Positions 23,953 to 34,576 of a stretch of DNA of 38,709 nucleotides are shown one piece after another. A model generated the notes under the pieces. That model searched no databases and was not told the DNA's origin. It worked only from the letters and a program-made list of their open reading frames with translations. How positions within the stretch are numbered: the stretch's first letter is position 1; every line of letters begins with the position of its first letter. The stretch is from Candidatus Hadarchaeota archaeon (GTDB taxonomy: Archaea; Hadarchaeota; Hadarchaeia; Hadarchaeales; Hadarchaeaceae). The translations under genes and the position numbers were made by a program. The stretch covers positions 4,251-42,959 of the forward strand of contig CAYUMT010000003.1 of NCBI GenBank assembly GCA_964446015.1, given 5' to 3'.

Positions 23953-25197
23953 TCATTCGTAGCGAAGTGCCACTATTGGGTCTAAATTTGCAGCTTTTCT
24001 TGCTGGTAACAGTCCCGCCATCACGCCCACGAGGAAAGACAGGGCTATTACTCCCACTATTAGTTCGGGTATTATCACGATACTCGCATTGAGCGATTGA
24101 AATCCACCTCCTTGGGGAAACTGAGAACCGCTGAAGGCTAAACTGGACAAAAAGAGTAACCCTTGGCCTAACCCTAACCCTAAGGCGACTCCGATGGCAC
24201 CTCCTATGAGGCTTATGATCCCAGACTCAAGTACAAACAAAAGCAGTATGTCACGGTTTGTCGATCCTATGGCCTTCATGACACCTATCTCCCTAGTCCT
24301 CTCTGAGACGGTCACGTACATTATGTTGGTGATCCCGATCGTCCCGACAATCAGGGAGATTCCCGCTATGCCTCCCAGAAGGATGGTCAGCAAGCCGGTG
24401 ATCTGTCCCACTATGCTGGTGATGTATTCCGGTGTTATCACCGTGAAGTCCTCATTGCCCTTTGTCACTTTGTGGGAGCGGCGCAGAGCTTCCGAAATCC
24501 TGTCGGCCACTTCGCTTACGTTTGCGTCGGGCTTTACCCCCACGGTTATTGAATTCACCCTGTCCGCGGACAGTTGAAACAGATCCCTCATCTCCTTCTT
24601 TGGAATATATATTGTAGAATCCGTAGTTACGAAAAGGCCGCCGCCCTTATTTAAAATACCAACAACCTGGAATTCCGCGCCGTTTATGATGAGCTTTTTT
24701 CTTATGCCGACATCCTTCTCGTACGTGTCGTAAGCGACAGAATTGCCTATGATTGCGGCAAGGCGGTCAGAGTCCTTTAGATATCTCCCTATCTCTATGC
24801 CCAGTGTGTCTAATTTTTGAAAATCGCTGGGAGAGACACCTGCGATGGTCAAACCTTGCGCCTCGCCCCCATAATCTACGAGTACGGATGTCTGGATCTG
24901 ACCGTAAGCTGCCTGCACCTCGGACACGCTCAAAACCGTGTCGACATCCTTTTCGGTTAACACGCCTGTCGTCGCGGAGCCGCCAAAAGTTCCGCCTATT
25001 CTTGCTGTAGTGACAGTGATTCTATTTCCCTGAAGCTTTTCAAGTTGGCCGCTAATTGAGGCACTAATTCCTTGAGTCGCTGAGACCATGCCGACAATGG
25101 CCGCTATCCCTATTATAACGCCCAGCGTGGTCAGAGCGCTCCTCAACCTCCTCTGGGTTAAGTTTCTGAATATTAGGACAAGAGACCCCTTTAGCAT
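23953..25197 (-). CDS. ABC transporter permease, MacB/FtsX type
   Basis: 414 aa. N-terminal TM helix, a large MacB-type periplasmic domain, and a C-terminal FtsX region with 3 TM helices (ERTREIGVMKAIG). Confidence 0.9.
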   Translation of the reverse strand: MLKGSLVLIFRNLTQRRLRSALTTLGVIIGIAAIVGMVSATQGISASISGQLEKLQGNRITVTTARIGGTFGGSATTGVLTEKDVDTVLSVSEVQAAYGQIQTSVLVDYGGEAQGLTIAGVSPSDFQKLDTLGIEIGRYLKDSDRLAAIIGNSVAYDTYEKDVGIRKKLIINGAEFQVVGILNKGGGLFVTTDSTIYIPKKEMRDLFQLSADRVNSITVGVKPDANVSEVADRISEALRRSHKVTKGNEDFTVITPEYITSIVGQITGLLTILLGGIAGISLIVGTIGITNIMYVTVSERTREIGVMKAIGSTNRDILLLFVLESGIISLIGGAIGVALGLGLGQGLLFLSSLAFSGSQFPQGGGFQSLNASIVIIPELIVGVIALSFLVGVMAGLLPARKAANLDPIVALRYE

Positions 25198-25200
25198 ACA

Positions 25201-26406
25201 TTATTTTCTCCTCTTTCGCAAGAAATAGTAAACAATCAGAGCGGCAACCACGATGATGAGTGCTATTTGCCAAATAGGAATTCCAACCGTATTTCCAATT
25301 TCGCCGATGGAAAGTACGCTTAAGTCAACGGTTTTAGTCTCTGTGAATTCCTTACCGAATGGATCTTGATACACCAGCTCAAAACTTACGGGATAAATAC
25401 CCTTTGCAGTTTTTTCACTAACTTTGAAGGACATTTTTTCGGTGTCATAGTCATCCGACTTTAAATCGCCTATATAAATATTGTTCGGGATAATCTCCTC
25501 TAAAAATGGAGAATCCGGAATCCTTAGTTGCAGAAATTGGGCCTCAATGGTCCCAGCATTAGCTATCTTTATCTCCATAGTGCCCTTCATGCCGCTTGCC
25601 ACTTTATCTTGCGAGTCTAGCGTGACTATCAAGTTAAGTTTTCCATAAACCTTTATCCCGGCTGATTCTCTACCTGTAAAAATCTCATTCTTTGTTTCAT
25701 CCTTATAATTAAACAATATCGGGATGGAGTAAGAACCCGCGCTCAAATCTTGGCTTATGGTGAGGGAAAAAGAAACCTTGGTGGAACTGCCCACCGGCAA
25801 ATCTCCGATGTACTTCTCGCTCAAGTCTGCGGTAAAAATCCCACCAGTTTGATCTAGCGAGACTATCAAATCCTTTGCGAGTCCATCGCCGTAATTTTTT
25901 GCATCGAAGGAGATCGTCACATTGCTGCCTGGTTCAATTGTGGATGGGCTGTAGTTTATGCCTGCAACTTTCAAAAGCGGGGTTGCCCTTATTATCACAG
26001 GAACCCATAACGTAAGGTTCTTTTCATCGGCGGTAACGCTACCGACGTGGAAAGTCGAGCTTACCTGTATGTAAGATGTGCCGGATTTTGCGTTATCACT
26101 AGCTTTAATCTTTATTGAGGTATATTGGGCAGTCGTAGGGTTGATGCTGTTTAAGCTGAAGTGAGCCGGTGAAACGGTGAGGCTTGGGTCCGCATCAAAA
26201 TAAAAATGCACGTCATAGATCCTAGTGGTAAGAGGGTTTTCAATGGTCAGTAATAGTGCCGTTTCGCCACTTGGTCTTAAGAAATTATCAAGCAGTCGCC
26301 AATTTACATTCAATGAACCATCATCCGCAGAAATCGGACCCGCGCTGGCTAGAACTACCGATAGGAGTAGTATAGAGGCCAGTGCCAAGATTAATACATT
26401 TTTCAC
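25201..26406 (-). CDS. secreted, C-terminally anchored cell-surface protein with repeated CARDB/COG1361-like beta-sandwich domains
   Basis: Signal peptide MKNVLILALASILLLSVVLASA, three similar about-110-aa beta-rich repeats (..PGSNVTISFDAKNYG.., ..GTMEIKIANAG..), and a C-terminal TM helix followed by RKRRK. Confidence 0.75.
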   Translation of the reverse strand: MKNVLILALASILLLSVVLASAGPISADDGSLNVNWRLLDNFLRPSGETALLLTIENPLTTRIYDVHFYFDADPSLTVSPAHFSLNSINPTTAQYTSIKIKASDNAKSGTSYIQVSSTFHVGSVTADEKNLTLWVPVIIRATPLLKVAGINYSPSTIEPGSNVTISFDAKNYGDGLAKDLIVSLDQTGGIFTADLSEKYIGDLPVGSSTKVSFSLTISQDLSAGSYSIPILFNYKDETKNEIFTGRESAGIKVYGKLNLIVTLDSQDKVASGMKGTMEIKIANAGTIEAQFLQLRIPDSPFLEEIIPNNIYIGDLKSDDYDTEKMSFKVSEKTAKGIYPVSFELVYQDPFGKEFTETKTVDLSVLSIGEIGNTVGIPIWQIALIIVVAALIVYYFLRKRRK

Positions 26407-26407
26407 G

Positions 26408-27103
26408 TTATCTCCTCTCCTCCTTTACTATCTGACCGTCTTTTAAATAAACTGACCTATTTGTTTTTCCTGCTATATATGTATCATGGGTAACGATTAC
26501 TAAGGTCACCCCCTTTTCCTCGTTCAATCTCAGAAGCAGATCAATGATATCCCTCCCTGAGGCGGAATCTAAATTGCCAGTCGGCTCATCTGCAAGGATG
26601 ATTTTTGGCTCGTTTGCGATGGACCTAGCTATGGCGACCCGTTGTCTTTCTCCCCCGCTTAATTCAGATGGTTTATGCTTCATCCTTTCAGTCAAGTTTA
26701 CCAGCTTCAGAAGCTCCTTCCCTCTGTCTCTTCTCTCACGCTCCCCTCTGCCCGCAAACATCATCGGCAATTCGACGTTTTCCAGTGCAGTTAAAGTTGG
26801 GATCAAATAAAAGAACTGAAAGACGAATCCAACTTTATTCCTCCTTATTTCGGCCAATTTTGAGTTATTGAGCTTTGAGGTATCTACTCCATCTATAAAA
26901 ATTTTGCCGTTTGTAGGCTTGTCTAAACAACCTATCAAATGAAGGAGGGTGGACTTCCCCGAACCGGAGGGCCCTATTATTGAGAGGTTTTCCGACGGCG
27001 CTATATCCAAACTTATTTTATTTAACGCCCTAAACTCCACTTTGCCCATGTCGTAGATTTTGCTGACACCGCGTACGCTGACGACTTCGCTCATCTTGTT
27101 CAC
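26408..27103 (-). CDS. ABC transporter ATP-binding protein (MacB/LolD-like)
   Basis: GPSGSGKST Walker A, LSGGERQRVAIAR signature, ILADEPTGNLD Walker B. Confidence 0.93.
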   Translation of the reverse strand: MNKMSEVVSVRGVSKIYDMGKVEFRALNKISLDIAPSENLSIIGPSGSGKSTLLHLIGCLDKPTNGKIFIDGVDTSKLNNSKLAEIRRNKVGFVFQFFYLIPTLTALENVELPMMFAGRGERERRDRGKELLKLVNLTERMKHKPSELSGGERQRVAIARSIANEPKIILADEPTGNLDSASGRDIIDLLLRLNEEKGVTLVIVTHDTYIAGKTNRSVYLKDGQIVKEERR

Positions 27104-27110
27104 CAGATTA

Positions 27111-27362
27111 TTATTTCGTGTTACTCAAAATCATTTTTCCAAATTGCTTCCGCAGTTTTTCTAACTCTTTTTGCATATGTAACAGTGTTTCTGGTTTCAC
27201 TACTCCAAATCCTTCCCCCTTTGGCCCGCTGATGAACATCAGCGTGTCGCCTGTCTTGATATTAGAATCTTTCCTTAACTTGACAGGTATCACTATTTGC
27301 CCCTTTATCCCCACGGTGGCGGAGCCGTAGAACTTGGCCCCAAATTCTTCTTTCTTCTTCAT
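27111..27362 (-). CDS. AbrB/MazE/SpoVT-family DNA-binding protein
   Basis: The start is set at MKKKEEFGAKFYGSATVGIKGQIVIPVKLRKDSNIKTGD.LMF (SpoVT-AbrB swapped-hairpin motif). The 36 codons upstream in the track ORF cross the promoter and operator. Confidence 0.8.
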   Translation of the reverse strand: MKKKEEFGAKFYGSATVGIKGQIVIPVKLRKDSNIKTGDTLMFISGPKGEGFGVVKPETLLHMQKELEKLRKQFGKMILSNTK

Positions 27363-27386
27363 CTTACCACTCCTTAAACTTATCCT

Positions 27387-27410
27387 ACTTGTTATACATA
27401 TTATACAAGT
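27387..27410. promoter_or_regulatory. candidate operator upstream of the AbrB-ABC operon
   Basis: ACTTG-TTATACA-TA-TTATACA-AGT: 6-bp inverted arms (ACTTGT/ACAAGT) enclose a direct TTATACA repeat. It is adjacent to a minus-strand TTTTTATAC TATA-like box. Confidence 0.35.
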
Positions 27411-27483
27411 ATAAAAAGTTTTCTGTATGCGGTTTAGTTGACTTAAATTCGATTTCTGTAGCAGAATCAAGGAAGTGATAAGC

Positions 27484-27730: not shown

Positions 27731-28516
27731 ATGAGCCCAATTGACATGTTGATTTTTGCTTTTTGCTCTGTTCTGTTTCTGACGGTGTTTCTCGGCTCAT
27801 TTCGGCTGAAGATCCCGCGGAAGGTGAGCACCGAAGGAATCGAAGATCCTCGGGCAGCGGAGGCGTATGATCGCATAAGCCGCATGCCACAATTTGGGTT
27901 GATTAGGCGGAGTTTCGTGAAGAAACTGAAGATGCATGCCGTTGAGGGATCAATCACGGACGTTGGATGCGGTCCGGGGTATCTTTTGCTGGTCATGGCC
28001 AAGGATTTGCCAGGGCACAAGTTGGTAGGTGTAGACATCTCAAAGGAGATGGTGGAAAGAGCAATGGCTAACTTTAATTCAATGGGTCTCGGCGAGAGGG
28101 TTGAGTTCAAGTTAGGCTCCGCTGATCACTTGCCTTTCGACGATGACACTCAAGACTTCATAGTAAGCACCCTGTCGCTTCACCATTGGGCTGATCCTCA
28201 ATCCGCATTCAATGAGATTTACCGTGTCCTGAAACCTGGCGGACAGATGTTGATACTCGATCTAAGGAGGGACGCTCGACTGCTATTCTTTTGGTTTATG
28301 TGGTTCGTTCAAAACGTGGGGCTTAGGGTGATTGGCGCGGATGTGATGAGAAAGATCAATGAACCAAAGGGTTCCCTGATCGCCAGCTATACTAGTCAGG
28401 AGATCGAAGAAATGATGTCGAAGACTCGCTTTAAAGAGTACAAAATCGAAGGAAAGCTGGGATGGATCTACCTCTGGGGAAAAAAGGATTTGGTGGCTCA
28501 CCTCGGAGAAAATTGA
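27731..28516 (+). CDS. membrane-anchored class I SAM-dependent methyltransferase (UbiE/Methyltransf_11-like)
   Basis: N-terminal TM helix LIFAFCSVLFLTVFLGSF, motif I ITDVGCGPGYLL, VGVDIS, LPFDDDTQDFIVSTLSLHHW and LKPGGQMLILDL. Confidence 0.85.
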   Translation: MSPIDMLIFAFCSVLFLTVFLGSFRLKIPRKVSTEGIEDPRAAEAYDRISRMPQFGLIRRSFVKKLKMHAVEGSITDVGCGPGYLLLVMAKDLPGHKLVGVDISKEMVERAMANFNSMGLGERVEFKLGSADHLPFDDDTQDFIVSTLSLHHWADPQSAFNEIYRVLKPGGQMLILDLRRDARLLFFWFMWFVQNVGLRVIGADVMRKINEPKGSLIASYTSQEIEEMMSKTRFKEYKIEGKLGWIYLWGKKDLVAHLGEN

Positions 28517-28666
28517 AATAAGACACTGGCGCCACGGTGCTGGGTGCAAAACCGTTTGAAAACGCTGCGATCAAAACACATGAACCGTAATAACGCACTA
28601 TTATCGACAACGTCGTATCAAAAGTAGTCGCACCGCCCGAAGCTACAGGCGCGTATTTGGTCGGGG

Positions 28667-29740
28667 CTAAGCTATCGTCAGGCACCGTTGCGGACACTGC
28701 CGAACGCAGGCCCCACAGTTTACGCATTCGTTGACCTGAACGATTCTTGCCTTGCGACGAATGAAGTCGATCTCATAAACGCCTTTAGGGCAAACCTCAT
28801 AGCATAAGGCGCAACCATCGCATCTTTCTTCGTCTAACTGAATGCTGCCGTAAGCGCCGAGGGGATACACTCCGGTGAGGAAAGGCATTCGCCTGTAACC
28901 ACGGCGATAAAAAAGTTCGCCCAGGTCGCTTTTGTGGGTGGGCGAGGTGCCGTTGAAATCGACACCTATCACCACTGAGACCAGCGCTGAGGCTATCATC
29001 AGGTACTGCAGGCCAAGCGGGTCTCCGACCAAGACCGCTGAAAAAACAACAATACTTAGGATGGAAACTATTTCAGCCAGAATCACTTTGACGAATCCCG
29101 ATCTCACCGGGATGTGCGGGAAGGCAATATAGATCGAATAGATCATGAGCCCTGCTAATGCAACGATGGACAGATAAAGATTTGAGAAGAAGATCAGCAA
29201 CGGTAGGGAGAGAATTAGTACAATCATCGCAAAATAAATTGTGGCCATTTCGAGCCTATCTTTCAAGTTAAACTCCACAAAACGCATTTTATCAGTTTTT
29301 CGAAAGTTTCTCCTGACGTACTCGGGGATGTCTCCTGAGTAGACCGGGCCAAATTGCACGTTCCACCCGGTTTCCTCTTTCACCTTTTTGACGTCTATGC
29401 CCGGAGCACTTAATTGAGGGGCTATTAGCGTTTTGTGCTTCACCTTGTTATCGATACCGCTGGTCTTTATCGCCGAAATAACTGAAAATTCGTTGAAGTC
29501 TCCACCGCACGATCCGCACCAGACGTTTATTCCCCTTGACCCAGCAACCAGTAAGTAACAGTCTAAGTCTTGAAGATGTTTGGAAACCCGCCTGACCGTC
29601 AGGTCGTAGTTGCAGGTTAAAATAACGGGGCTGTTTTCATCGGGATTTCCAAAGACCCTCAGTCCGGGTTCAACTGGAAAAGGAACCCACCTAAGCAGGT
29701 TTTCTACGGGCAACTTGATGGCATATTTCAATTTCATCAT
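28667..29740 (-). CDS. HgcA-HgcB-like fusion protein (corrinoid-binding domain + 4 TM helices + 2x[4Fe-4S] ferredoxin domain)
   Basis: GNPDENSPVILTCNYDLT..., GINVWCGSCGGDF at the position of the HgcA cap-helix motif N(V/I)WCA(A/G)GK, APQLSAPG and FGPVYSGDIP. Four hydrophobic helices follow, then CDGCALCYEVCP and CVNCGACVRQCP. Confidence 0.8.
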   Translation of the reverse strand: MMKLKYAIKLPVENLLRWVPFPVEPGLRVFGNPDENSPVILTCNYDLTVRRVSKHLQDLDCYLLVAGSRGINVWCGSCGGDFNEFSVISAIKTSGIDNKVKHKTLIAPQLSAPGIDVKKVKEETGWNVQFGPVYSGDIPEYVRRNFRKTDKMRFVEFNLKDRLEMATIYFAMIVLILSLPLLIFFSNLYLSIVALAGLMIYSIYIAFPHIPVRSGFVKVILAEIVSILSIVVFSAVLVGDPLGLQYLMIASALVSVVIGVDFNGTSPTHKSDLGELFYRRGYRRMPFLTGVYPLGAYGSIQLDEERCDGCALCYEVCPKGVYEIDFIRRKARIVQVNECVNCGACVRQCPQRCLTIA

Positions 29741-30414
29741 CTCTCCCCCTTTAAAGCCACGATCAGCTCTAAAGAGTCTAAGAGATACCGAGAAGTGTGC
29801 TCAATTTTGAAATGTGCGGCAGTGATTTTTTGTTCTATGTTTTTTAGAGGTCTTGTAGTTGTCTGGGTGAAAAGGTAGGCCAAAGACGCTAATGGAAGCC
29901 GAATAAGATAATACAGAAACTTTTTTCCATGCGATCTAGGTTTAACCTCGTCCGCAATGATGATTTTACCATTGGATTTCAATATGCGAAAGGATTCCTT
30001 GAGCGCGAAGCGTTGCTCATCTTCAGACAACTCACTAAAAACAAGGTTACCTACCACTTTATCGAAGGAACGGTCGGGAATATGCTTGTCCATCTCAACA
30101 ACGCTCATATTTTTCAAATCGATATTTCCTGTAAGTTGCGCCTGTTCAACTTTGCTTTCAGCAATTTCTAACATCTTTTTAGAGGTGTCGATTCCCGTCA
30201 CATATGCTCCACGTTCAGCGCACAAAATTGCCAACGTTCCTGTCCCAACGCCTATTTCGAACACTTGGTCGTTTTTTGAAATGAAGCGCGACGCTATCTC
30301 CTCCTCGACCAGCCGCGCGTTTCCAAAGGTAATTAGATTAATTCCTGTATCGTAGCGTCTTTCAGAAGACTCCAGTAGCTTCATCAACACGTAACTGCAC
30401 ATGTCCCCACGCAC
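29737..30414 (-). CDS. class I SAM-dependent methyltransferase, translationally coupled to the HgcAB-like gene (CpaM-like, corrinoid-protein-associated)
   Basis: Motif I VFEIGVGTGTLAI, GIDTS..ML, FDKVVGNLVFSEL and LKSNGKIIIADE. The stop overlaps the HgcAB-like start (ATGA). The true start may be the internal ATG at 30402 or 30384 (MKLLESSERRYD). Confidence 0.8.
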   Translation of the reverse strand: MRGDMCSYVLMKLLESSERRYDTGINLITFGNARLVEEEIASRFISKNDQVFEIGVGTGTLAILCAERGAYVTGIDTSKKMLEIAESKVEQAQLTGNIDLKNMSVVEMDKHIPDRSFDKVVGNLVFSELSEDEQRFALKESFRILKSNGKIIIADEVKPRSHGKKFLYYLIRLPLASLAYLFTQTTTRPLKNIEQKITAAHFKIEHTSRYLLDSLELIVALKGER

Positions 30415-30664
30415 AACGAATTACTTTATGAAAACCAGGATTTATCGATTTCTTTAGGGCTTCCGTCTCACAGGTATTTGAGGCCTGTTTTTAACTCGGG
30501 GATATAAATGTGTGAACCAATCCCAACATGGGCTTGCTTCGTCAAATTAGGTAGATTTAAGGGGCAATGGAAATCCCATTGAACATTGTTGGAATTAACA
30601 TGGTGCATTTCCGTAAAATTGTGGGTACAAATCTAAGTGGTAAAATCCAAACTAAACCGAAAAC

Positions 30665-31237
30665 TCAAACTTTCTTTATCTTTGATAACCCTATGTATCT
30701 CGGCGTCTTTGATTGGTATGAAAGGTATTTTTCTCCAAATATGCGCTCGAGATAAGGTTCTTCTATTCGGGTAATGTAGAAATGGAAAAGGATGATGCCT
30801 ATCATTGTGTACAAAAGAGCTAGCCATGAACCGCCGATAATCGATATACCTGAGAGCACCAAGAACCAACCAAGGTACTGGGGATTCCTGCTCCATCGAT
30901 AAATACCTGTAGTAACAAGCTCTGAATTGTCCAATCCTGAGATCCTGCGCATAGAGCGGAACTCAATCATCCCCGCCAACATGACGACCACACCAATTCC
31001 AAGCATAACTGAGCCGCCTGTTAACGCAACCGCATTATCGATCGGTATCGGCCAAACAGTGTACAATGATGACGAGACCACCAAGAAAAAGTGAACCGCA
31101 TCTAAAACCCACCAACCAAATGAAATTCCTACCGGTAATGCTTTTCCACTGTCATAAGTCCTTTTAGTCTTCAAAAAAACATACAAACCTAACACCACCA
31201 AAATTCCTGAGACTACATAGAGCACATAAAACAACAT
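30665..31237 (-). CDS. ICMT/PEMT-family integral-membrane methyltransferase
   Basis: About 5 TM helices, and the C-terminal block LVTTGIYRWSRNPQYLGWFL......EEPYLER.FGE.Y..Y....PRYIG typical of isoprenylcysteine carboxyl / phospholipid methyltransferases. Confidence 0.85.
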   Translation of the reverse strand: MLFYVLYVVSGILVVLGLYVFLKTKRTYDSGKALPVGISFGWWVLDAVHFFLVVSSSLYTVWPIPIDNAVALTGGSVMLGIGVVVMLAGMIEFRSMRRISGLDNSELVTTGIYRWSRNPQYLGWFLVLSGISIIGGSWLALLYTMIGIILFHFYITRIEEPYLERIFGEKYLSYQSKTPRYIGLSKIKKV

Positions 31238-31480: not shown

Positions 31481-31496
31481 GAATTGGTGCGGCCGG
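31481..31496 (-). repeat. proximal copy of the 16-bp direct repeat (inside and abutting the tRNA 3' end)
   Basis: GAATTGGTGCGGCCGG, identical to 27484-27499. Confidence 0.6.
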
Positions 31497-31581
31497 CGGG
31501 ATTCGAACCCGCGCTACAGGCTTGGAGGGCCTGAGTCCATTGGCAGCTTTTTTAGCTTTAGCCAGGCTGGACCACGGCCGC
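31485..31581 (-). tRNA. tRNA-Gly(UCC)-like gene with encoded CCA and an about 18-20-nt insertion in the D-loop (candidate non-canonical intron)
   Basis: The minus strand reads GCGGCCG-UG-GUCC-[AGCCUGGCUAAAGCUAAAAAAGCUGCCAAU]-GGAC-U-CAGGC-CCUCCAA-GCCUG-UAGC-GCGGG-UUCGAAU-CCCGC-CGGCCGC-A-CCA. The pairs are 7/7 acceptor, 4/4 D, 5/5 anticodon and 5/5 T. The anticodon call assumes a 7-nt loop, which puts C at position 33. Confidence 0.8.
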
Positions 31582-33688: not shown

Positions 33689-34576
33689 TTAATTTCTTTT
33701 TCTTAAGGGCTCCACTTTCACAGTCAGTCTCTTTAAAACGGGCATTTGTTTCATAGCTTTATTTTCGATTTTTTCAACTATTTCGTTAGCGGCATAAACC
33801 GAGAGTTTTCCGTCAACTTTTATGTGCATCTCTCCCATGACGTAGGGTCCGGATTGCCTCAACAAAACCTCATGAACTTCTTTAACGCCCTTCACACTCT
33901 CGGCTATTTCCTTGATGTTGCCTCTTACTCCCTTGCAGCTGCAACCGTCCAATAGTATAAGTGAGGATTCCTTTATGGCCCCATATGATACCACAAATAT
34001 GAAGATGGATATTATCATGCCAGCGATGGACTCGACCTGATGGAACCCCATGTAGGAGAAAGCGAGTCCAATAAAAACTATAGATGATGCCATCCCCGTC
34101 TTTATAGAATTCTTAGCATCAGTCTTCAAGGATAATGAACCTAGTCTTTTTGCGACTCTGCCCTTGTATATCGCCAGCACATAAAATGATATGGCGGAGA
34201 GCAATGAGACCAACAGGGCGACCAAAGGGAAATCCAAAGCTCTGGGCGAGATAAATGACATGTATGATGAATAAAGAAACCATGCGCCCAGCGCGGTTAG
34301 AAAGATGGCCACGATCATCGAGGCGAAAGTTTCCGTCTTGTAGTAGCCGAACTGAAATCTTTCACTTGGATTTTTCTTTAACAACTTCAACCCGATTAAC
34401 ACTATTACCGAAACAAAAGCGTCGGCCAGCGTGTGGATGCCGTCGGCCCTCATCGCCACGCTGTTAGATAATAGGCCTACGGAAAATATGAGTATCCCTA
34501 GTGCAACCAGCACTGTAATTGATATCTCGGTAATTCTTTCACCGCTTTTGAGGGGAGATTCCGCCTGCATTTTCAT
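33689..34576 (-). CDS. cation diffusion facilitator (CDF) family metal efflux transporter
   Basis: 6 TM helices, ADGIHTLADA in TM2, HxxxD-like motif in TM5, and a C-terminal cytoplasmic domain (VKEVHEVLLRQSGPYVMGEMHI). Confidence 0.9.
   Translation of the reverse strand: MKMQAESPLKSGERITEISITVLVALGILIFSVGLLSNSVAMRADGIHTLADAFVSVIVLIGLKLLKKNPSERFQFGYYKTETFASMIVAIFLTALGAWFLYSSYMSFISPRALDFPLVALLVSLLSAISFYVLAIYKGRVAKRLGSLSLKTDAKNSIKTGMASSIVFIGLAFSYMGFHQVESIAGMIISIFIFVVSYGAIKESSLILLDGCSCKGVRGNIKEIAESVKGVKEVHEVLLRQSGPYVMGEMHIKVDGKLSVYAANEIVEKIENKAMKQMPVLKRLTVKVEPLRKRN

Follow-up and report, generated by a model that had tools for sequence, protein, structure and literature searches.

A cpaM and HgcAB-like fusion gene pair in a Hadarchaeota archaeon: a member of a known corrinoid protein family and its putative SAM-dependent methyl relay

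The window analysed here is a stretch of 38,709 nucleotides (nt) from a Candidatus Hadarchaeota archaeon (contig CAYUMT010000003.1), and all positions refer to this whole stretch. We studied the region from 27731 to 31237, which contains four open reading frames (ORFs) at the coordinates reported by an earlier inspection of the letters alone (the sequence-only reading); the Pfam E-values of all four are far beyond chance. The core of the region is a pair of adjacent genes on the minus strand, one encoding a fusion of counterparts of the mercury-methylation proteins HgcA and HgcB, the other CpaM, a class I S-adenosylmethionine (SAM) methyltransferase. The features of the pair are the following.

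28667..29740, minus strand: HgcAB-like fusion protein of 357 amino acids (aa), with a corrinoid-binding domain, four transmembrane (TM) helices and a 2x[4Fe-4S] ferredoxin domain (NF043039, PF03599, Fer4)
29300..29686, minus strand: corrinoid-binding domain, Rossmann-like, of the type found in the corrinoid iron-sulfur protein (CFeSP), residues 19-147 (PF03599; phmmer match to 4djd_C)
29495..29527, minus strand: cap-helix segment NVWCGSCGGDF, read from the translation; C75 is the presumed cobalt ligand and C78 the second Cys of a CxxC pair
28955..29266, minus strand: membrane domain, four predicted TM helices, residues 159-262 (DSSP helices, hydropathy, K/R distribution)
28670..28852, minus strand: HgcB-like dicluster ferredoxin domain, residues 297-357 (translation; Fer4_10 E 7.3e-10)
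29737..30414, minus strand: CpaM, class I SAM methyltransferase (NF043040), whose stop overlaps the start of the HgcAB-like gene

The HgcAB-like protein scored 388.5 bits against the curated model NF043039, 'HgcAB-like fusion protein' (cutoff 285), with residues 12-354 aligned to profile positions 5-349 of 350. PF03599 (CdhD) matched residues 19-141 (E 1.4e-20), and this match was restricted to profile positions 264-386 of 387, i.e. the C-terminal corrinoid part of the CFeSP large subunit. Consistent with this, phmmer aligned residues 19-146 with the CFeSP large subunit 4djd_C (E 1.5e-11), the PDB chains being matched at residues 317-444. Fer4 dicluster models were found on residues 300-355. 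The two CX2CX2CX3CP motifs, C307/310/313/317-P318 and C339/342/345/349-P350, were invariant in an alignment of 36 family sequences, and the blocks GNPDxxSPV..T.NY.L, APQLSAPG and FGPVY were present in the window protein and invariant or nearly so across the family. An extra Cys, C353, lies 4 residues past C349. In an Asgard subclade (e.g. P0038, P0049, P0063), CL or CQ replaces CP at the end of the second cluster motif (CINCNACVNRCLAQC), with an extra Cys 3-4 residues further on.

An AlphaFold model built on the 36 family sequences had a pLDDT of 86.9 and a pTM of 0.82. DSSP assigned helices to residues 159-184, 186-209, 215-238, and 245-262 of the model. These four helices coincide with the sole hydrophobic stretch of the protein (residues 162-265), which is bounded at both ends by K/R-rich loops, an arrangement in which the corrinoid domain and the ferredoxin domain would face the same side of the membrane. 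The top Foldseek match of the model was the HgcA integrative model 9a0b_A (E 2e-11, 292 aligned columns), followed by the CFeSP large subunits 2h9a, 2ycl, 4c1n, and 4djd (E around 1e-7, up to 3e-7; rmsd 2-3 Å over about 131 residues). Corrinoid-binding models were thus matched by profile, by sequence, and by structure (PF03599, 4djd_C, and 9a0b_A, respectively), contrary to the outcome that the sequence-only reading had named as refuting it. The protein therefore has the fused HgcA-HgcB layout that the sequence-only reading had assigned to it, including the four TM helices and both Cys clusters. Its closest named homologue and that of CpaM, annotated 'HgcAB-like fusion protein' and 'CpaM', reside in one metagenome-assembled genome of Bathyarchaeia and are 75% and 79% identical, respectively. 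Taken by themselves, these relatives would point to a probable bathyarchaeial origin of the window.

The residues contacting B12 in HgcA of D. desulfuricans ND132 are Thr60, Thr66, Val91, Cys93, and Ala153 (PMC7305189). They correspond at a constant offset of 18 to T42, T48, V73, C75, and S135 of the window protein, a mapping inferred from the published residue numbers and their uniform shift. In the family alignment, T42, N72, V73, W74, and C75 were invariant and T48 and A/S135 nearly so. The contact residues and the Cys ligand are therefore retained, supporting the conservation of a putative corrinoid pocket and of the cap-helix Cys in the HgcAB-like protein.

The altered cap helix noticed in the sequence-only reading is real, since the segment reads NVWCGSCGGDF with a CxxC pair; it is not peculiar to this gene, since a Cys at +3 was found in 183 of 279 non-identical family domains (about 85 of the top 117 matches) and is the majority state of the family. 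The variants included CASCGG, CGACGD, and CAACGG; the window's CGSCGG, seen in 7 of about 220 sampled sequences, is rarer than the first two. In members without the second Cys, the position is occupied by G, K, V, A, S, T, E, or R, and a rough neighbour-joining tree of the 279 domains requires about 16 changes of state. Since the position is so labile, C78 is a common accessory trait, dispensable for the core chemistry. C78 would lie one helical turn beyond C75, on the ligand face. Speculatively, it could act as a thiol/disulfide relay aiding the return to Co(I) or as a soft-metal site.

The CpaM reading frame begins with a GTG codon at 30414 (225 aa), whereas the public gene call (P0121) begins with the ATG at 30384 (215 aa), which is the probable start. 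The protein scored 271.3 bits (cutoff 180) against NF043040, 'corrinoid protein-associated methyltransferase CpaM', a hypothetical equivalog, and matched the Pfam models Methyltransf_25, 11, and 31 with E-values of 1e-15 to 1e-17 (best, Methyltransf_25, E 2.6e-17). The stop codon of cpaM and the start codon of the HgcAB-like gene overlap by 4 nt, as read in the DNA (...GGGGAGAG ATGA TGAAA).

This coupling is general. In a survey of one genome per species, comprising 80 loci, cpaM was located directly upstream on the same strand in 71 and fused in frame in six; the remaining three were cut at a contig edge. CpaM was therefore upstream of or fused to the HgcAB-like protein in all 77 informative loci, usually with a 4-nt overlap or within a few tens of bases. 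The 77 loci span at least six archaeal and six bacterial lineages, among which Asgard archaea, including the cultured Promethearchaeum syntrophicum MK-D1 (L025), Bathyarchaeia, Baldr-, Heimdall-, and Odinarchaeota, Dehalococcoidia, Anaerolineae, Aminicenantia, Desulfobacterales, Planctomycetes, and Acidobacteriota. CpaM is an obligate genetic partner of the family.

A search seeded with a triple fusion returned more than 90 clusters of single polypeptides of 580-660 aa combining CpaM, HgcA, and HgcB, from Asgard archaea, Desulfobacterales, Calditrichota, and others. On the tree, the fused state changes about five times, indicating that fusion or fission occurred repeatedly. One triple fusion, modelled on 70 homologues, was predicted to form a single compact body (pLDDT 89.6, pTM 0.87). 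Foldseek matched this model to generic class I methyltransferases and to the HgcA model and gave no clue to the substrate. As Rosetta-stone evidence, the natural fusions indicate that CpaM works together with the corrinoid protein as a single machine. Genetic coupling and the compact predicted fold are consistent with a methyl transfer catalyzed by CpaM that would involve the corrinoid protein.

Two side observations concern the pair. Several CpaM-HgcA-like fusions of about 535 aa (P0306, P0315, P0344, P0346, and similar) had no Fer4 Pfam match; these may be truncated gene calls or a variant using a separate electron donor. At loci of Anaerolineae, Dehalococcoidia, and some other bacteria (L039, L056, L059, L063, L071, L075, L077, L079, L080), an ORF whose N-terminus resembles the TetR family by eye recurs on either the upstream or the downstream side of the pair. 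It could encode a dedicated regulator, in which case its ligand would hint at the substrate.

The relationship to genuine HgcAB was assessed from curated hidden Markov model (HMM) scores and published trees. The window protein failed both genuine models, scoring 167.7 bits against HgcA (NF040863, cutoff 275) and 49.6 bits against HgcB (NF040864, cutoff 99). Like genuine HgcAB, it combines a corrinoid domain bearing a cap-helix Cys ligand, a membrane domain, and a 2x[4Fe-4S] ferredoxin, and it probably uses SAM via methyl-Co(III). It differs in being one polypeptide rather than two, and in having four predicted TM helices rather than the five of genuine HgcA (PMC11588087). The high-stringency cap criterion for true HgcA is N[VI]WC[AS][AGS]GK (PMC10087281). 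The window sequence NVWCGSCG does not fit this criterion, reading CGSCGG instead of C(A/S)(A/G/S)GK, although the equivalent of Cys93, C75, is kept. In HgcB, Cys73, about 12 residues past the second cluster, is essential, and a C-terminal Cys pair has been proposed to deliver Hg(II) (PMC7305189). The window chain ends ...CPQRCLTIA, seven residues after the second CP, and therefore lacks the Cys73 helix and the C-terminal Cys tail. Most genuine HgcA proteins have been reported to carry an N-terminal CU/CC extension (10.1101/2022.07.06.499078). The window protein has no N-terminal CU/CC and no Cys before residue 43, and its start codon leaves no room for such an extension since it overlaps the cpaM stop. 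Neither a terminal CC nor an N-terminal Cys was present in any of the family members sampled. Finally, genuine HgcAB has no counterpart of the obligate class I SAM methyltransferase, separate or fused, of the window protein's family.

The tested carriers of fused genes do not methylate mercury. P. furiosus made no methylmercury (Podar et al., 2015; PMC4646819), and Methanococcoides methylutens was also negative (PMC5893877); Podar et al. point out that a negative culture result does not prove that the enzyme is incapable of methylation (PMC4646819). Fused genes, those of Asgard archaea among them, fall into a distinct clade with good support (Lin et al.; 10.1101/2022.11.21.517362), and survey protocols advise leaving them out (PMC10087281). 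The loss of every Cys motif that handles mercury, together with the negative culture tests, argues that the acceptor is not Hg(II).

Purified genuine HgcAB takes a methyl group from SAM via a methyl-Co(III) species with a Co-Cys thiolate bond, the clusters of HgcB giving the electrons for Co(I) (PMC11588087). Homology to this SAM-using enzyme and the obligate coupling to CpaM lead us to propose, as the probable though by no means certain function, that cpaM and the HgcAB-like fusion form a two-gene module relaying methyl groups from SAM through a corrinoid to an acceptor other than mercury. The C-terminal 2x[4Fe-4S] domain would pass low-potential electrons to the corrinoid, generating Co(I). 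CpaM would bind SAM and methylate Co(I) to methyl-Co(III), with Cys75 of the cap helix serving as the lower axial thiolate ligand. The methyl group would then pass at the membrane to an acceptor other than Hg(II). This acceptor would probably be a soft electrophile, either associated with the membrane or transported, and the four-helix domain would handle it. The data establish the identity of the domains, the retention of the corrinoid contacts and Cys ligand, and the obligate genetic coupling to CpaM; which way the methyl group flows, what the ferredoxin does, and everything that concerns the acceptor are inferred. A relay from SAM through a methyltransferase and Co(I) to an acceptor, with electrons from the ferredoxin, had been suggested in the sequence-only reading and remains the most reasonable interpretation.

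Four points weigh against the relay. First, genuine HgcAB takes its methyl group from SAM without a separate methyltransferase (PMC11588087), so that CpaM is not obviously needed for loading the cobalt and may do something else. Second, the biochemical data on the family consist only of the negative mercury-methylation tests on cultures. Third, the cap segment was modelled with low confidence (pLDDT 63) and was not helical in the window protein, although it was helical (H309-315) in the triple-fusion model. Fourth, no conserved third gene points to the acceptor: all-against-all clustering of the neighbours and Pfam tallies over 147 flanking proteins revealed only lineage-specific synteny, such as a TetR-like regulator in Chloroflexota.

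Among the alternatives, it is possible, though we doubt it, that the module transfers its methyl group to a metalloid or another soft metal (As, Se, Te, Sb, or similar), with the CxxC motif as the substrate-binding pair. A CxxC pair at the N-terminus of a helix has the geometry of a heavy-metal-binding motif, which would suit such a function. Cys-ligated methyl-cobalamin favours transfer to soft electrophiles, as argued for HgcA (PMC7305189). By homology with CFeSP and the HgcA cap helix, however, the CxxC would face the corrin from below, on the ligand side and away from the methyl group. The second Cys is also missing from one third of the family, where its position is highly variable. Genes for metal handling are scattered within a few kb of the pair, namely a CDF transporter in the window (33689-34576, minus strand), a P-type cation ATPase (L086:3053-5485) and a peptide with a YHS domain (L081:4100-4219) in relatives, and a ZIP transporter in six Asgard loci, but the transporters belong to different families in each lineage and these neighbours are too heterogeneous to count as evidence. 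Moreover, no ars or mer genes were found nearby, and ArsM-type models matched CpaM only at the generic class I level (54 bits versus a cutoff of 510).

The sequence-only reading had also described three methyltransferases around one corrinoid protein as a system. The two flanking genes lie where it had placed them, one 250 nt upstream of cpaM on the same strand and the other convergently downstream.

30665..31237, minus strand: membrane methyltransferase of the PEMT/ICMT superfamily, 190 aa (PF04191, PF04140), a possible accessory that is not part of the core
27731..28516, plus strand: UbiE-like class I methyltransferase with an N-terminal TM anchor, 261 aa (Methyltransf_11), convergent with the core pair across a 150-nt gap

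The upstream gene product matched PF04191 (PEMT; 63.2 bits, cutoff 25, E 3.5e-17) and PF04140 (ICMT; 32.3 bits, cutoff 24, E 1.3e-7). It failed every curated equivalog of the superfamily, including isoprenylcysteine methyltransferase (38.1 bits versus 160) and MddA (21.4 versus 270). The 250-nt spacer contains a TATA-like TTTATAT sequence, which suggests that cpaM may have a promoter separate from that of the PEMT gene. We compared the loci of three close relatives, L084 (P0002, 79% identity), L081 (P0006, 75%), and L086 (P0007, 71%). A PEMT orthologue (72% identity) was present in the same gene order at L084, the closest relative, and missing from L081 and L086. In an iterative search, PEMT-family ORFs occurred within 6 kb in 14 of the 39 informative CxxC-type loci, all archaeal, and in none of the 30 others (Fisher p = 1.3e-4), an enrichment that is confounded by phylogeny, given that the CxxC loci come from archaea and most of the others from bacteria. 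Such a gene accompanied about one third of the archaeal loci and none of the bacterial ones. Its link to the module is thus only statistical, and the PEMT/ICMT gene may at most be a lineage-specific accessory.

The TM-anchored methyltransferase matched Methyltransf_11 (E 4.3e-27) and begins with a hydrophobic helix (residues 1-28). It had no counterpart in L084, L081, or L086. About 30% identity to an Asgard UbiE-like enzyme of 227 aa is within general class I similarity. The gene is most likely a bystander unrelated to the core pair. A second hydrophobic, aromatic-rich segment at residues 182-202 (ARLLFFWFMWFVQNVGLRVIG) occupies the place of the CpaM lid helix (FLYYLIRLPLASLAYLF), and the protein scored 68.7 bits against the CpaM model, under the cutoff of 180; judged from these features, it may be a distant CpaM paralogue. 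Co-occurrence across genomes, a check suggested in the sequence-only reading, therefore holds for CpaM (77 of 77 loci), in part for the PEMT gene, and not for the TM-anchored methyltransferase, which is missing even at the 79% identity locus.

In Promethearchaeota and Thorarchaeota, a block of genes lies 3' of the HgcAB-like gene (L006, L007, L009, L013, L018, L020, L021, L041, L042, L055, L074; e.g. L013:7178-10629). A gene of the F420H2-dependent quinone reductase/deazaflavin nitroreductase family (PF04075, found in 10 loci) is directly downstream, and the block also includes a PNPOx-like gene, a multi-TM protein of 140-150 aa, two PEMT/ICMT paralogues (about 200 and 290 aa), ZIP, and the 227-aa UbiE-like methyltransferase. 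The block may reflect a shared function or mere inheritance of gene order.

These neighbourhoods bear on two further proposals. According to the first, the CxxC-type proteins of Bathyarchaeia and Asgard archaea would be a distinct subtype, in which C78 and Cys75 form a thiol/disulfide relay within the protein for regenerating Co(I), or a soft-metal site, and the PEMT/ICMT and UbiE-like enzymes act in one membrane pathway on a lipid, quinone, thiol, or metalloid. We consider this a long shot worth stating, as it would define a new membrane methyl route dependent on SAM and B12, possibly the ancestral job of the superfamily with mercury methylation as a side reaction. According to the second, which strikes us as unlikely, the four genes of the window, encoding the PEMT/ICMT enzyme, CpaM, the HgcAB-like protein, and the TM-anchored methyltransferase, would constitute a single methyl-relay pathway. 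The PEMT enrichment in CxxC-type loci, the conserved order PEMT-CpaM-HgcAB-like at L084, and eight Promethearchaeota/Thorarchaeota loci with the 227-aa UbiE-like methyltransferase and two PEMT paralogues would fit such a pathway. However, the enrichment follows phylogeny and the Asgard cases may represent one inherited synteny block, in which the position and strand of PEMT vary among loci. The absences from the close relatives, the 250-nt gap containing TTTATAT, and the lack of either gene at any bacterial locus also argue against a four-gene pathway.

It is quite improbable that CpaM methylates a small molecule or lipid directly from SAM, with the HgcAB-like protein as a membrane anchor or as a redox or regulatory partner whose corrinoid is not a methyl carrier. 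The CpaM domain does resemble Coq5 (TM-score 0.74), a bacterial phosphatidylethanolamine N-methyltransferase (TM-score 0.73), and UbiE-type models, and the ability of genuine HgcAB to use SAM unaided would leave CpaM free for another task. The resemblance to Coq5 and PmtA is nevertheless at the level of the generic fold (14-23% identity), the invariance of the corrinoid contacts and of the Cys ligand argues for selection on corrinoid chemistry, and strict 1:1 coupling with repeated fusion is typical of enzymes catalyzing consecutive steps of one reaction. The idea that the protein is a functional mercury methylase, a fused isoenzyme of HgcAB, has the least to recommend it and is largely refuted already: homology to HgcA and HgcB throughout, the retained cap-helix Cys and clusters, and the caveat on culture tests (PMC4646819) stand against subthreshold scores with both HMMs, a divergent cap motif, the absence of Cys73, the C-terminal Cys pair, and N-terminal CU/CC, and the lack of methylmercury production by both tested carriers.

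Two-gene relay chemistry of the kind proposed for CpaM and the HgcAB-like protein has partial parallels in other systems. The CFeSP AcsC/CdhE and its methyltransferase MeTr, of the Wood-Ljungdahl pathway, share the corrinoid-binding fold and the logic of a carrier, a reductive activation by Fe-S clusters, and a partner methyltransferase. Unlike the window protein, however, CFeSP is a soluble protein whose cap position holds Thr, not Cys, and which has an N-terminal single [4Fe-4S] cluster and a TIM-barrel domain; its methyl donor is methyl-tetrahydrofolate, delivered by the TIM-barrel MeTr, and not SAM bound to a Rossmann-fold methyltransferase. Cobalamin-dependent radical SAM enzymes, TsrM, and the reactivation of MetH provide precedents for methyl transfer from SAM to Co(I) (cited in PMC11588087). 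Their folds are unrelated: the window protein has no radical SAM domain, both of its clusters have four Cys, and SAM would bind to the class I methyltransferase.

The sequence-only reading had regarded the locus as the best candidate for an undescribed system. This does not hold, since NCBIfam has curated models for each of the two core proteins and the fused clade was first reported in 2015 (PMC4646819); the reading was right in stating that a curated CpaM family and non-methylating fused homologues exist. The family represented by NF043039, i.e. the fused clade of Podar et al. (2015) and Lin et al. (2023), has the same architecture, invariant NVWC, partner gene, and taxa (Bathyarchaeia, Asgard, Chloroflexota, others). 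We found no substantive difference between the window protein and this family apart from the rarer cap variant, and none between the window CpaM and NF043040, which is defined by the same adjacency to a corrinoid protein. The window locus is an ordinary member of a known, curated family pair and by itself adds little beyond another member. In our literature search, no paper used the term 'corrinoid protein-associated' or discussed CpaM, and the link between CpaM and its corrinoid partner seems to be recorded only in NCBIfam curation. What is new in the present analysis is the universal coupling to CpaM, the more than 90 clusters of triple fusions, CxxC as the majority state, the missing Cys residues for mercury handling, and the accessory pattern of PEMT.

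These observations bear on the long-standing question of the natural function of the HgcAB superfamily, for which the methylation of mercury may be an accident. Members of the fused clade are common among sediment archaea, MK-D1 being one, and in several anaerobic bacterial phyla, yet the clade is routinely discarded as a 'non-methylating paralogue' in surveys of hgcA. The demonstration that genuine HgcAB uses SAM makes the question of function more tractable, and, in combination with the obligatory CpaM partner, makes the fused clade an attractive and less hazardous model for the loading of a Cys-ligated membrane corrinoid from SAM. The lack of Cys73 and of a C-terminal Cys tail, a CxxC or variable cap, and adjacency to CpaM also provide sequence criteria for excluding fused genes from estimates of mercury risk.

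The surroundings of the pair did not corroborate the proposal in the sequence-only reading that it lies on a probable islet. The GC content is flat across the window, no integrase-like ORF was seen among the neighbours in the window, and these neighbours are ordinary housekeeping genes: an operon for a MacB-type ABC transporter, a DeoC-family aldolase, a GPR1/FUN34 channel, the CDF transporter, and an alcohol dehydrogenase. The only mark reminiscent of insertion is a nearby tRNA gene (31488-31581, minus strand), 250 nt upstream of the PEMT gene. It was detected with Rfam (55.2 bits, E 2e-9), whereas ARAGORN with its default settings found none in the entire window. Scanning the region with Rfam revealed no riboswitch and no RNA family other than the tRNA. 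Scans for sigma-70 promoters and terminators, with models unsuited to an archaeon, gave no more matches than in shuffled sequence. The anticodon loop of the tRNA, CCUCCAA, was read as Gly(UCC), and the D-arm region contains about 23 extra nt, which look like a non-canonical archaeal intron. On the other side, adjoining the convergent methyltransferase gene, an operon on the minus strand (23953-27470) encodes a small AbrB/MazE-like protein, an ABC ATPase, a 401-aa surface protein with CARDB domains, and a MacB/FtsX permease. This operon resembles an export or efflux system and seems to have no connection with the cpaM and HgcAB-like pair.

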